A DNA stretch of 22,906 bases from a virus: the IMG/VR virus record IMGVR_UViG_3300035211_000102; one strand, 5' to 3'. Numbering within the stretch: position 1 is the stretch's first letter; the number at the start of each line of letters is the position of its first letter. Shown here in pieces: positions 6,199 through 21,309 of this stretch. The translations under genes were made by a program, and so were the position numbers. The notes beneath the pieces were generated by a model, which saw nothing but the letters and a program-made list of their open reading frames with translations, was not told where the DNA came from and did no database searches.

Positions 6199-6612
6199 CT
6201 AAATACTCCTCTTCCCCAAAATTACTGTTGAGAAATCAGGAAGTGGATCACCTTCCAGACAGCAATACAGATGGAGACACCGAGGATGGATGTTCACATG
6301 CTCATCCTTTGGAGCGAACACCATGATGCACTTCCGGTCTTCTCCGGCCCAGTGCCGCTTCAAGTACGTCAACTCATCGTACGTCGGCATGCGCCTCCGG
6401 TGTGAAATCGACAGATGAAGCCACACGCGATCATCCCCGTATAGTGCAATCGACGCCCCTACCCTCAACAACCTCTTGTGGTTGTCCCACATCCCATCCG
6501 TCATGCCTGGTCCGCCCATTACCTGCACCCACCCAGGAGGAAGTTTCTCCCCCGTCAACGGCAAGCTGTACTGCATTGCCCTCTTCCAGGATGGATCACC
6601 GAAATCCTTCAT
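6199..6612 (-). CDS. hypothetical conserved-looking protein
   Basis: 137 aa with WLHLSISHRRRMPTYDELTYLKRHWAGE. Its ATG overlaps the upstream DnaJ-like stop (4-nt ATGA). Confidence 0.5.
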   Translation of the reverse strand: MKDFGDPSWKRAMQYSLPLTGEKLPPGWVQVMGGPGMTDGMWDNHKRLLRVGASIALYGDDRVWLHLSISHRRRMPTYDELTYLKRHWAGEDRKCIMVFAPKDEHVNIHPRCLHLYCCLEGDPLPDFSTVILGKRSI

Positions 6613-7367
6613 GAATCACCAACCTTGAACAGTCCCCTCGGAATCACAGGATTGAACATCTTCACCTCTCCTATCCCATGGCACTCCTCGCACACGAGAT
6701 AGTATGGCTTTCCATCTGTCTTGATCTCCGTCGTTCCGTCCCCGAAGCATTTTTCACAGGGTATCCCCCTCCTCTGCGTTCCAGGAATATACGGAGCCGT
6801 GGACGGCATCCGAAACCCAAAACCAAATGAATCTCTCCATTGCGAACCACGTCGCTTGTTGAACGGATAGAATTTACCCGTACCCTTGCACTTATAGCAC
6901 TCCCCGATATCTTTCTTGCTCTTCGGATGGATATATCTCCCTGTCCCCTTACATCTCTCGCATGGATAGAACTTCAGCCCGTCACCGCCGCACAAGGTAC
7001 ATTGTTCAAACTTTCCAGTTCCCGTTGACATCCCAGAATATCGCTTGAACCCCAGCCCTTCACATCTTTCACACGTCCTTGCATTCTCTGTAATCGGGTA
7101 GCCCCTCCCGAGATCTGACAGTTTCTGCCCATCAATAGTATAAAGCACCTTTTTCTGATTCTCCGCTTGCCCTTCCAGCAGCTTAAATGCTGATGTAAGA
7201 GCGCCAAACTCCTCATCTGTCCCACCATGGTCTGGATGCTTATCCATCACCAGAACTCTGTATGCCTTTTTCAGCTCTGCCCTTGAAAAATTTTCAGCAA
7301 GCAAATTCCCAAACAGCTTCTTCGCCTGATCCTTGTCCATTTTTGCCATTCCCTTGAGATCAACCAT
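6609..7367 (-). CDS. DnaJ-like co-chaperone: J domain plus cysteine-rich zinc-finger (CR) domain, no C-terminal substrate-binding domains
   Basis: The J domain ELKKAYRVLVMDKHPDHGGTDEEF carries the HPD tripeptide. Six CxxCxGxG repeats follow: CERCEGLG, CTLCGGDG, CERCKGTG, CYKCKGTG, CEKCFGDG, CEECHGIG. Confidence 0.8.
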   Translation of the reverse strand: MVDLKGMAKMDKDQAKKLFGNLLAENFSRAELKKAYRVLVMDKHPDHGGTDEEFGALTSAFKLLEGQAENQKKVLYTIDGQKLSDLGRGYPITENARTCERCEGLGFKRYSGMSTGTGKFEQCTLCGGDGLKFYPCERCKGTGRYIHPKSKKDIGECYKCKGTGKFYPFNKRRGSQWRDSFGFGFRMPSTAPYIPGTQRRGIPCEKCFGDGTTEIKTDGKPYYLVCEECHGIGEVKMFNPVIPRGLFKVGDS

Positions 7368-16584: not shown

Positions 16585-17877
16585 TCACGCCTCCTGTATT
16601 GGTTCGTAGTCTTTCTCTTCCTGCCATCCGGTCCATGCAACAGCCTGATGCGCTGTCGTGCACTCGGGTGGCACTCGTAATGCATAGCGTCTATTAGTGG
16701 AAGGATCCGACACAAAAACAAATTTTGCGATAGGATCTTCCCCATCGAGGTACTCCCCGAGCCGGTCCGTACTGACGAGTGTACCATATCGGTCTGTTTG
16801 CTCAGTGGTTGCCTGAAGGTCAATTAATAAACGGTCCCACCCATATCTCTCCAGCATTACTCTCCTGATCTCCTGATTGTTTTCGGTCAGAACTTTTTGT
16901 GGCGTAATCTTTTCTGGCGACTCTATCACCCACTGTGGCACACGTACTCCATGCCACGCCCAGATGCCAAATCCGTCTGCATACTCTAAAGCCCTCCTAG
17001 ATTCATGATGCAATCTGAAATTGTCATCCCGCGTGAGAAAAATTGGACGCTCCGTAAATATCACCGCGTTATCAAGCGGCCACCACCAACCAACCTCTTT
17101 GGAAAATTCAATCATCGGCCGTAACAACTGACACTCGTCCTGCAAATATTTATAAAAATAATCATAAAATGACAGCCAACTCGAATCATGAATTCCATAT
17201 CCACATCTATGCACCTGATCCAAGACCTGATCCTTGACCTGATCCTTGACCTGAGCCTTGACTTGATCCCAGACCTGACCCCAGACCTGTTCCCTAACCT
17301 GATCCCAGACCTTAGCCCTGACCTGATCCCTGACCTGAGACTTGACCTGAGCCCATACCTGATCCCAGACCTGACCCCCTACTTGATCCCAGACCTGATC
17401 CTTGACCTGAGCCATAACTTGATCCCCGACCTGATCCCCGACCTGATCCCAGACCTGACCCCAGACCTGATCCCCGACTTGATCCCAGACCTGACCCAAG
17501 ACCTGAGCCATGACCTTATCCCCGACCTTATCCCTGACCTTATCCCTGACCTGATCCTCGACCTGAGCCCCGACCTGAGCCCAGACCTGATCCTTGACCT
17601 GAGCCATAACTTGATCCCTGGCCTTATCCTCGACCTTGCCCAGCAATACAGATCCAATCCACCCCGCTATCGGAGAGGATAACCATATTTTAATTTTTGG
17701 TGGTTCTAGCCCCGCCGACTGATAAACTGGATCAATCAGCCGTTCGCATTTTTTCCGATCACATGGTCCAGTCTGGAGACCTATTTTCAGCCATCGCTCC
17801 CGGACTCTCTGCATTCTATCTACTTGTTCCTCGTTCAATTCCGTCAATATCATCAGAACTCCTGCCCCTTTCCCCAA
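16585..17877 (-). CDS. tetrapeptide-repeat protein (x-Q-V-x)35 flanked by unique N- and C-terminal domains
   Basis: 430-aa track ORF (TTG start). About 140 central residues are in-frame [D/A/G]-Q-V-[W/K/R/M/G/E/L] repeats. The unique C-terminal domain contains WAWHGVRVPQWV...RVPPECTTAHQAVAWTGW. The true start may be the ATG at 17853 or a reinitiation ATG just after an upstream uORF. Confidence 0.6.
   Translation of the reverse strand: MGKGAGVLMILTELNEEQVDRMQRVRERWLKIGLQTGPCDRKKCERLIDPVYQSAGLEPPKIKIWLSSPIAGWIGSVLLGKVEDKARDQVMAQVKDQVWAQVGAQVEDQVRDKVRDKVGDKVMAQVLGQVWDQVGDQVWGQVWDQVGDQVGDQVMAQVKDQVWDQVGGQVWDQVWAQVKSQVRDQVRAKVWDQVREQVWGQVWDQVKAQVKDQVKDQVLDQVHRCGYGIHDSSWLSFYDYFYKYLQDECQLLRPMIEFSKEVGWWWPLDNAVIFTERPIFLTRDDNFRLHHESRRALEYADGFGIWAWHGVRVPQWVIESPEKITPQKVLTENNQEIRRVMLERYGWDRLLIDLQATTEQTDRYGTLVSTDRLGEYLDGEDPIAKFVFVSDPSTNRRYALRVPPECTTAHQAVAWTGWQEEKDYEPIQEA
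17217..17636. repeat. 35 contiguous copies of a 12-bp tandem repeat (plus-strand consensus GATCCYWGACCT)
   Basis: Directly visible in the sequence, e.g. gatccttgacct gatccttgacct gagccttgactt gatcccagacct ... The units are in frame, so the other two frames are open as well. Confidence 0.9.
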
Positions 17878-20415: not shown

Positions 20416-21019
20416 TCATGCCCAACGCCTCACCTCTTCGCATTTTGGACACCTTCCACACCTCGATCCATTCGCCCTCGGATTTTCGCATGACCACCAA
20501 CAATGATCTGGTACCATTGCCTTTTTCAGGTCACCGATTATCTCTCTCTTGGTTTTCCATTCGAAGGGGAACTTGACCTCCGCACTGACCCCCTTCAGTG
20601 CCATCAGCGCATCGAACGCACTGACAAACTCGTGTCTGTAATGCCACATCGCATCACCCTTGATGTAAGCAAACATCACCACATCATCATCGGTGATGCA
20701 CTGAGCAATAGCCACCAACCAGATCCACATCTGTCCAGGAGGTCCAGCCTCCGACGGACCCTTGGCATCAAAGCTCCCCCCCGAACTCAATCTCCTGTGT
20801 CCTGATCCAGTACCCCTTCTTCCTAGCGAGGTCCAGGTATCTTTCCCTTGCCTTTTTCTCGGCAGACAGCTGGGTGTCCCTCAGATTTGGATATGACGAA
20901 ATCGATATTGCATGCACCGGGTAATCTTTCGACGAAACACCCGCATAATATTCGAGCAAGGCCGTTGAGTCGGCCCCACCTGACCAAACTATTACATTTC
21001 TTCCCATGAGCTTACCCAT
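20416..21019 (-). pseudogene. queC: QueC-like PP-loop ATPase (7-cyano-7-deazaguanine synthase family) interrupted by a +1 frameshift in a G7 run
   Basis: N-terminal part (track ORF 20768..21103): NVIVWSGGADSTALL is the SGGxDS PP-loop. C-terminal part (track ORF 20416..20790): CWWSCENPRANGSRCGRCPKC is the QueC-type Cys4 zinc site. The two frames meet at GGGGGGG (coding strand, plus-strand positions 20776-20782), and deleting one G fuses them. Likely start: ATG at 21019 with a GAGGTG RBS. Confidence 0.65.
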
Positions 21020-21054
21020 CCGGATGCCACCTCTTGCCATATAACGTGACCATT

Positions 21055-21309
21055 CTATGCTTTGCTGTAATCCACAGCCTTCTTGACGAACCCGAAACAC
21101 CACTCGTCCTCCGGCATGACCGGAAAAAAACCGGCCGACCCGGGCCGCTCAGACTTCGGAGGCCGCGCCTTGCAGAACCCATACCGCTTCTTCGACGCGA
21201 CAACGATCCCGAGAGTGGACAGCTTCAAATCCTTGTTGTGCTCCCACGCTCCGCAATCCTCACAGAACCCTTTGAATCCCCATGGCATCTCCTTGTCAGG
21301 CTCTCTCAT
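21055..21309 (-). CDS. hypothetical Cys-containing protein
   Basis: 84 aa: FCEDCGAWEHNKD. Confidence 0.4.
   Translation of the reverse strand: MREPDKEMPWGFKGFCEDCGAWEHNKDLKLSTLGIVVASKKRYGFCKARPPKSERPGSAGFFPVMPEDEWCFGFVKKAVDYSKA

Follow-up and report, generated by a model that had tools for sequence, protein, structure and literature searches.

A phage J-domain protein with six DnaJ-type zinc motifs and a conserved C-terminal tail, a putative cochaperone of host DnaK

J-domain proteins determine the substrates of Hsp70 chaperones. Recruitment of a host Hsp70 by a phage J-protein is an established idea. The only characterized phage J-protein is Rki (ORF 057w) of the T4-like phage RB43, which acts through host DnaK and stabilizes sigma-32 (PMC3486835). 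Rki has no DnaJ zinc domain; sequences that resemble this domain are found in RB43 as two separate small open reading frames (ORFs), 179c and 191c (PMC3486835). For DnaJ-domain proteins of jumbo phages, recruitment of host Hsp70 has been predicted (PMC7824862), and large aquatic phages have been reported to carry chaperone genes (PMC12619734). As later summarized, Barriot et al. (2020) surveyed cultured phages and counted 49 unique phage J-proteins, of which 48 were in class C and had no other known domain (PMC13254874). Here we describe a J-protein of 252 amino acids encoded by IMG/VR virus record IMGVR_UViG_3300035211_000102, a 22,906-nucleotide stretch of viral DNA that we refer to as the window. 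Its J domain is followed by six DnaJ-type CxxCxGxG motifs, an architecture of which we found no description in the literature consulted, where the primary survey is represented by its summaries (PMC13254874, PMC10410713). The protein, with a fixed array of what are probably three zinc modules and an invariant tail, is a new architectural variant of a phage J-protein.

The sequence points to a phage J-domain cochaperone that belongs to class C by architecture and would use host DnaK/Hsp70, likely for host takeover or to support replication and protein production. We consider this reading probable. The gene is real and is part of a coherent family. A second, independent Logan contig and the JGI gene calls give a protein identical to that of the window (P0001), and a word-indexed search returned 25 further full-length relatives (210-288 amino acids, 28-53% identity), all of which have the same layout. 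Below, counts of zinc motifs, HPD tripeptides, and tail signatures were taken over 167 family sequences, and percentages for the tail were taken over 148.

The original prediction described a DnaJ-like ORF with an intact HPD, without stating its strand. The ORF holds and is on the minus strand (Table 1). The HPD is intact as well, within the sequence DKHPDHGG at residues 42-49. Helices II and III flank the HPD loop, as they should in a J-domain fold, and this part of the AlphaFold2 model is predicted with confidence (predicted local distance difference test [pLDDT] values of 90-96). On its own, the window J domain scores below the gathering cut-off of Pfam PF00226 (22.9 versus 27.8 bits). Its identity rests instead on relatives, the family profile, and the predicted fold. 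The Pfam J domain is matched by 24 of 26 relatives at E values of 1e-3 or less (best, 1.7e-9), and the family profile matches the J domains of solved structures in the PDB with E values down to 1.7e-13. The profile alignment also shows three residues fewer than in DnaJ directly after the HPD, which gives the compact HPDxGG form.

Conservation of the tripeptide is high throughout the family. Among 26 homologues, H44 and D46 never vary and P45 is conserved in at least 90%, and the HPD is kept in 152 of the 167 family members (91%). In approximately 10 of the 167 it is replaced by HTD, HSD, HVD, YPD, or RAD. These HPD-degenerate proteins (P0031, P0032, P0082, P0108, P0115, P0118, P0126, P0130, and P0138 among them) have all six CxxC motifs, and they retain the zinc modules and the tail. 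This retention hints that the C-terminal part may have a function of its own.

All six of the CxxCxGxG motifs that had been predicted are present. They start at C99, C123, C136, C157, C204, and C226 and read, in order, CERCEGLG, CTLCGGDG, CERCKGTG, CYKCKGTG, CEKCFGDG, and CEECHGIG. The 12 cysteines of the protein all fall within these motifs, and 12 of 12 are invariant across the 26 homologues, in which several motif glycines, R37, and N239 are the other invariant positions. Exactly six CxxC motifs occur in 148 of the 167 family members. When the protein was shuffled 100,000 times with its composition preserved, two was the highest number of CxxCxGxG motifs obtained, and it was reached in only 3 shuffles. 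Pfam DnaJ_CXXCXGXG (PF00684) matches residues 93-143 at 38.0 bits, above its cut-off of 32.7, and it matches 26 of 26 relatives. The family profile matches the cysteine-rich domain of E. coli DnaJ (1EXK) with an E value of 7.8e-6. The profile searches place the cysteine repeats in the DnaJ type and assign them to no unrelated zinc-finger class.

How the six motifs pair is suggested by their spacing. In DnaJ, the spacings between successive motifs are 17, 22, and 14 residues; motifs 2 and 3 close a hairpin and form zinc center II, and motifs 1 and 4 form center I. In the family described here, the spacings are 19-24 residues between motifs 1 and 2, 13-15 between motifs 2 and 3, 19-21 between motifs 3 and 4, and, in most members, 21-23 between motifs 5 and 6. 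The variable spacing is the one between motifs 4 and 5, which ranges from 13 to 74. Profile alignments place window motifs 1-2-3 onto DnaJ motifs 2-3-4. If the motifs are taken in successive pairs as modules A, B, and C, then the modules resemble one another (hhalign probabilities of 95.8% for A and B, 96.5% for A and C, and 97.6% for B and C). Each module ends in a Lys-aromatic-aromatic-Pro-like strand (KFYP, KFYP, and KMFNP), and in the predicted model a tight beta-hairpin lies between the two knuckles of each. The spacing pattern, the mutual resemblance, the predicted hairpins, the placement of motifs 1 and 2 on DnaJ motifs 2 and 3, and the variable linker between modules B and C all argue for the same arrangement. 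Therefore, the six motifs are most likely three tandem two-knuckle units, each like zinc center II of DnaJ, a pairing deduced from these patterns rather than from coordinates. The arrangement that typifies PF00684, with four motifs forming two nested zinc centers in a V-shaped hairpin, is not the one deduced. A DnaJ-like nested pairing (1 with 4 and 2 with 3) plus a separate site formed by motifs 5 and 6 is possible, and we judge it to be less likely. Presumably, three zinc ions are bound per chain. The proposal of an expanded cysteine-rich domain stands in that there are six motifs of the DnaJ type, but this is probably not the DnaJ hairpin with two more motifs and rather a set of three tandem units. 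Module B also has a weak match to Pfam Anti-TRAP (residues 135-164, E value of 0.2) that is far under the cut-off. One 662-amino-acid relative, P0124, has 17 CxxC motifs and is matched by the family profile at five separate places; it resembles a much longer array of the same zinc modules.

The remainder of the protein is distinguished by what it lacks from DnaJ and by two conserved segments. Residues 66-95 have a glycine plus phenylalanine fraction of only 0.13 and thus do not make up the glycine/phenylalanine-rich (G/F) region of class A proteins. The linker found there has the family consensus T-x-D-G-x-x-L-x-x-L-G-x-G (T, 82%; G, 89%; L, 82-90%; G, 94-95%). The C-terminal beta-sandwich domains are absent, as had been predicted: the protein ends 19 residues after the sixth motif, and neither it nor any of 26 relatives matches Pfam DnaJ_C. 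The score against the DnaJ equivalog model TIGR02349 is 45.3 bits, compared with a cut-off of 377.2. Otherwise, a search of NCBIfam returned only DnaJ models far under cut-off and TIGR02642, a hypothetical phage family (18-28 versus 101 bits). A J-domain protein is assigned to class C (type III) when it does not have the complete domain complement of class A or class B, and the window protein falls there by exclusion, because its G/F region, C-terminal domains (CTDs), and equivalog score all fail class A. It is unusual for class C in that it retains a DnaJ-type cysteine-rich region. The second conserved segment is the C-terminal tail, in which the signature residues are N (97%), P (95%), V (92%), L or I (95%), P (73%), K or R (96%), and G (86%). 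The fuller consensus is E-[IV]-x-[IM]-[FWY]-N-P-V-[LI]-P-[KR]-G, and 154 of the 167 family sequences have a C-terminal NP[VAIL][ILVM] signature. In the predicted model, pLDDT drops along the tail from 89 to 64 to 48.

Table 1. Features of the J-protein gene and its downstream neighbor in the window. Zinc modules follow the pairing judged most likely.
Feature	Coordinates	Strand	Description and basis
Whole ORF	6609..7367	minus	252 amino acids plus stop; J domain, conserved linker, three zinc modules, C-terminal tail (ORF list)
J domain, approximately residues 10-70	7158..7340	minus	Three long helices at 12-22, 29-43, and 51-65; short HPDxGG type
HPD tripeptide, H44-P45-D46	7230..7238	minus	Hsp70 ATPase-stimulating motif; from the translation
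Conserved linker LYTIDGQKLSDLGRGYPITENA, residues 75-96	7080..7145	minus	In place of the DnaJ G/F region; pLDDT 82-94
Zinc module A, motifs 1 and 2 (C99, C123)	6963..7073	minus	Beta-hairpin between motifs; DSSP strands 107-110 and 115-122
Zinc module B, motifs 3 and 4 (C136, C157)	6861..6962	minus	Beta-hairpin; DSSP strands 144-146 and 153-156; pLDDT 94-97
B-C linker, residues 170-203	6759..6860	minus	Variable, low confidence; pLDDT 53-60
Zinc module C, motifs 5 and 6 (C204, C226)	6654..6758	minus	Beta-hairpin; DSSP strands 212-217, 222-225, and 234-238
C-terminal tail NPVIPRGLFKVGDS	6612..6653	minus	Signature NPV[IL]P[KR]G; conservation among 148 members
DUF7694 gene, downstream context	6199..6612	minus	Pfam DUF7694, E value of 2.3e-20; junction sequence

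The family is large. When 1.84 billion representative proteins were searched with the family profile, 250 matched at E values of 1e-30 or less, and at 50% identity the family comprises at least 250 clusters. Among the best 150 profile matches, nearly all are 200-260 amino acids long and are matched across the whole profile. We searched for related loci with a pattern derived from a 9-sequence alignment. All of the contexts examined were phage-like. They have long runs of small unannotated ORFs that point in one direction, along with genes for HNH endonucleases, helicases, and thymidylate kinase or synthase and genes of anti-restriction-like type. Contigs that carry a family member reach 129, 169, and 318 kb, and at one locus (L011) terminase, portal, and capsid genes lie 2-9 kb downstream of the J gene. 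IMG/VR contains several relatives, and ten members that were checked came from metagenome sources only.

Outside such contexts, the family is close to absent. When the window protein and the relative P0021 were compared with 50,697 deposited phage records by tblastn, there was no match at an E value of 1e-3 or less. At a threshold of 10 there were only partial J-domain or single-knuckle matches, none of which covered at least 80% of the query. A megablast search of the same records with the whole window found nothing, and PHROG has no family that spans the full length of the protein. A pattern scan of 185,579 species-representative genomes yielded one relative. It is on CAYUTF010000008.1 (65,298 bp; L012/L033), a contig of an "uncultured archaeon" metagenome-assembled genome (MAG) with a phage gene set like that of the window, and this is probably a mis-binned phage contig. 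Besides the J protein, it encodes homologues of a major vault protein (MVP)-like protein, RlaP, DUF3268, SNF2, and DUF7694, together with a sigma-70-like factor and a CCA/poly(A)-polymerase-like protein. In the searches made here, family members lie only on phage-like contigs, and so far they are confined to uncultured phages.

In the window, the J gene is closely packed inside a minus-strand operon. Its ATG overlaps the stop codon of an upstream 51-amino-acid ORF by 8 nucleotides. In the 26-sequence alignment, however, most homologues begin at the position aligned with M10 of the window ORF, and so the true start may be M7 or M10 instead of M1. At the other end of the gene, the TGA overlaps the ATG of the DUF7694 gene (ATGA). 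This stop-start overlap suggests that the two genes are probably translationally coupled. We considered DUF7694 as a conserved partner and rejected it, because it is near the J gene in only two distinct phages, the second being that of L013, where it is approximately 1 kb downstream. In L030 and L033, DUF7694 is present and the J gene is not nearby. The DUF7694 family recurs in related phages, usually away from the J gene. Upstream of the gene run that contains the J gene, at 8332-8361 on the minus strand, there is a near-consensus match to a sigma-70-type promoter (TTGACA-18 nt-TATTAT, 11 of 12 positions); such matches are no more numerous here than in shuffled sequence. The window has no tRNA genes or Rfam families, and its PHROG matches include a phage DNA helicase and a nucleotidyltransferase.

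We compared 11 distinct J-bearing loci, each with approximately 10 kb of flanking sequence. The J gene is the only gene family common to more than three of them, and no Hsp70 gene was seen in the flanks of the J loci examined. This lack of a conserved neighbor across the 11 loci suggests that the partners (DnaK and probably a client) are encoded by the host or vary among the phages, and a host-encoded partner is probable. At most loci, the J gene lies in co-directional arrays of small early or middle genes beside genes for DNA and nucleotide metabolism. Because of this setting, and because the protein has no general client-binding domains, its role is likely to be a specialized one in host takeover or replication support, rather than that of a general DnaJ replacement.

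A three-step mechanism would fit these observations. First, the short N-terminal J domain would dock on ATP-bound DnaK, where the HPD would trigger ATP hydrolysis, as its conserved sequence and predicted fold suggest. Second, the three modules like zinc center II, the linker, and the tail would choose one or a few partners or a site of action and bring DnaK there. This part of the protein would not be a general client binder in the way that the beta-sandwich domains of DnaJ are. Third, the gene context suggests that the protein would act early or in the middle of infection, with partners that are host encoded or that vary among phages. The original prediction had interpreted the protein as a specialized adaptor. 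The combination of J domain and zinc motifs and the absence of client-binding domains agree with that interpretation, whereas the simple expansion of the cysteine-rich domain and a link to the MVP-like protein (see below) do not form part of it any longer.

A different use of DnaK is possible, although we think it rather unlikely. The protein might trap DnaK or induce the heat shock response, in which case the tail would be a built-in DnaK substrate, ATP hydrolysis stimulated by the J domain would clamp DnaK onto the phage protein, and the clamped DnaK would be titrated from sigma-32 or from host DnaJ. The candidate tail peptide is EVKMFNPVIPRGLFK, a putative ligand of the DnaK substrate-binding domain. 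The tail signature is the most conserved noncysteine element after the HPD, it has low predicted order, and it is hydrophobic, basic, and proline containing. Known ligands of the DnaK cleft that it may resemble are NRLLLTG, the LPPVK motif of IscU (for HscA), and proline-rich antimicrobial peptides. The lack of a conserved phage-encoded partner is consistent with a host target, and Rki provides a precedent for manipulation of DnaK and sigma-32 by a phage J-protein (PMC3486835). However, the N-P of the signature is within the high-confidence part of the model and may simply cap module C, and the three zinc modules would be left without an obvious role. One could also picture a self-contained "Hsp70 clamp," in which the J domain fires the DnaK ATPase, the tail fills the DnaK cleft so that DnaK is locked on, and the rigid zinc rod positions it on a particular host or phage target or just sequesters it. 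We hold this version to be equally doubtful. If it were true, sigma-32 would be released and DnaJ-dependent host functions, including phage sensing, would be blunted. It would also be a new mode of chaperone hijacking that is widespread in uncultured large phages.

The window also encodes an 892-amino-acid protein (11375-14053, minus strand) that matches Pfam MVP_shoulder (E value of 1.6e-23) and Vault_3 and resembles the eukaryotic MVP. Its homologues number more than 3,800 and come from large phage-like contigs and from MAGs of Polyangiaceae and Myxococcales. In related phages, the MVP-like gene heads a syntenic module that continues with genes for a pilin-like protein, the RlaP nucleotidyltransferase, DUF3268, and SNF2. 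One or two N_methyl prepilin-type genes are present in the same module of these phages, and the window has a small phage ORF with a prepilin-type N-terminal methylation motif (8374-8646, minus strand; Pfam N_methyl, E value of 1e-8).

The original prediction had suggested that the J-protein might assist the folding or assembly of this large MVP-like protein. Gene neighborhoods do not support such a dedicated assembly chaperone, and we regard it as improbable. The distance between the two genes is 4 kb in the window and 0.7 kb in a related phage (L010), even though the surrounding genes are rearranged, and the two co-occur in at least three genomes of the window's clade, CAYUTF010000008.1 being the third. 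However, they are close only in the window and L010. Three other phages of the same clade (L030/L031, L032, and L033) have the MVP module with no J-family gene within 10 kb of the MVP-like gene; in one of them, that of CAYUTF010000008.1 (L033), the J gene is approximately 30 kb away. Conversely, at eight J-bearing loci from phages that are more distant, the 10 kb around the J gene contain no MVP homologue, and the homologues of the MVP-like protein include bacterial MAGs without sign of the J family. A scan of viral contigs for exact patterns of the MVP-like protein found no relatives, and the comparison was based instead on a protein homology search and three context look-ups.

It is very improbable that the zinc array is a nucleic acid-binding or transcription-regulating element similar to the Q antiterminator, or a thiol-disulfide oxidoreductase, with a J-like N terminus that does not work via DnaK. 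There are weak matches to PHROG families of Q-like antitermination proteins (phrog_6060, E value of 9.3e-5; phrog_127, E value of 3.6e-4) and a weak tblastn match to a phage antiterminator (E value of 1), and a minority of family members do not have the canonical HPD. Disulfide isomerase activity has been reported for DnaJ-type cysteine-rich domains of DnaJ and of plant proteins. However, the PHROG matches are confined to one or two CxxC knuckles, the cysteine region is matched best by DnaJ-type cysteine-rich domains whether it is judged by sequence, profile, or fold, and retention of the HPD in 91% of members speaks for action via DnaK. Most unlikely of all is a counter-defense decoy, a DnaJ mimic that would compete against the host's own DnaJ for DnaK or for immune sensors that depend on DnaJ: host DnaJ is reportedly needed for phage sensing by bNACHT25 (cited in PMC12619734), and the J gene is among small accessory genes that are anti-restriction-like at some loci (Lar_restr_allev in L007 and L011), but no conserved linkage to known anti-defense genes was seen across the 11 loci, for which no defense or anti-defense library was searched.

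Three other minus-strand features of the window deserve mention in their own right. A 430-amino-acid protein (16585-17877) has a C-terminal DUF6745 domain (E value of 7.5e-44) preceded by long, low-complexity, heptad-like repeats of DQVWxQV(G/K/R). A frame resembling QueC (7-cyano-7-deazaguanine synthase) at 20416-21103 appears to be split into two overlapping ORFs, 20768-21103 and 20416-20790. Pfam QueC matches only the downstream ORF (profile positions 132-201), and the upstream ORF starts with an SGGxDS-like PP-loop; the split could be a frameshift, a sequencing error, or real. Finally, the SNF2-family helicase at 125-1804 has no intein or LAGLIDADG insertions. Its orthologues in L010 (2866-5655) and L032 (from 19622) are longer, at 929 and 1,040 amino acids, and have intein or LAGLIDADG insertions.

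If the J-protein is functional, it would be a compact and tractable case of how large uncultured phages redirect host DnaK. The family is also a natural experiment on the zinc center II module of DnaJ without the beta-sandwich domains, and its conserved short tail peptide could be tested directly for binding to Hsp70. The practical value is modest.

The closest described systems share parts of this architecture. Like Rki, the window protein is a small stand-alone phage J-protein that would be expected to act via host DnaK, but no full-length similarity to Rki or to other J-proteins of deposited phages was detected by tblastn in the 50,697 records. It resembles the surveyed phage J-proteins in its sporadic occurrence among phages and in its predicted recruitment of Hsp70. 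It differs in that the combination of a J domain with six motifs has no full-length match in deposited phage genomes or PHROG. The likeness to mitochondrial Tim14/Pam18 and to polyomavirus T antigens is confined to the short HPDxGG subtype of the J domain, and the remainder of those proteins is unrelated (a membrane anchor in one case and a helicase or PP2A-binding region in the other). B. subtilis anti-TRAP (RtpA), plant BSD2, and related "DnaJ-like zinc finger" proteins are likewise stand-alone proteins with DnaJ-type cysteine-rich regions. However, they lack a J domain, their zinc sites number one or two instead of three, and they are cellular rather than viral.

The class A J-domain proteins (E. 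coli DnaJ, yeast Ydj1, and human DNAJA1/A2) are alike in having an N-terminal J domain with an HPD and CxxCxGxG knuckles of the same Pfam family, and the fold matches of the window protein are DNAJA2 and 1EXK. Even so, the window protein has six motifs rather than four, which probably form three tandem units rather than one nested V-shaped hairpin, and its zinc region is not inserted in a beta-sandwich. It has no G/F region, CTD-I, CTD-II, or dimerization domain, and it is 252 amino acids long compared with approximately 380. In addition to its zinc modules, it has a linker and a C-terminal tail that are specific to its own family.

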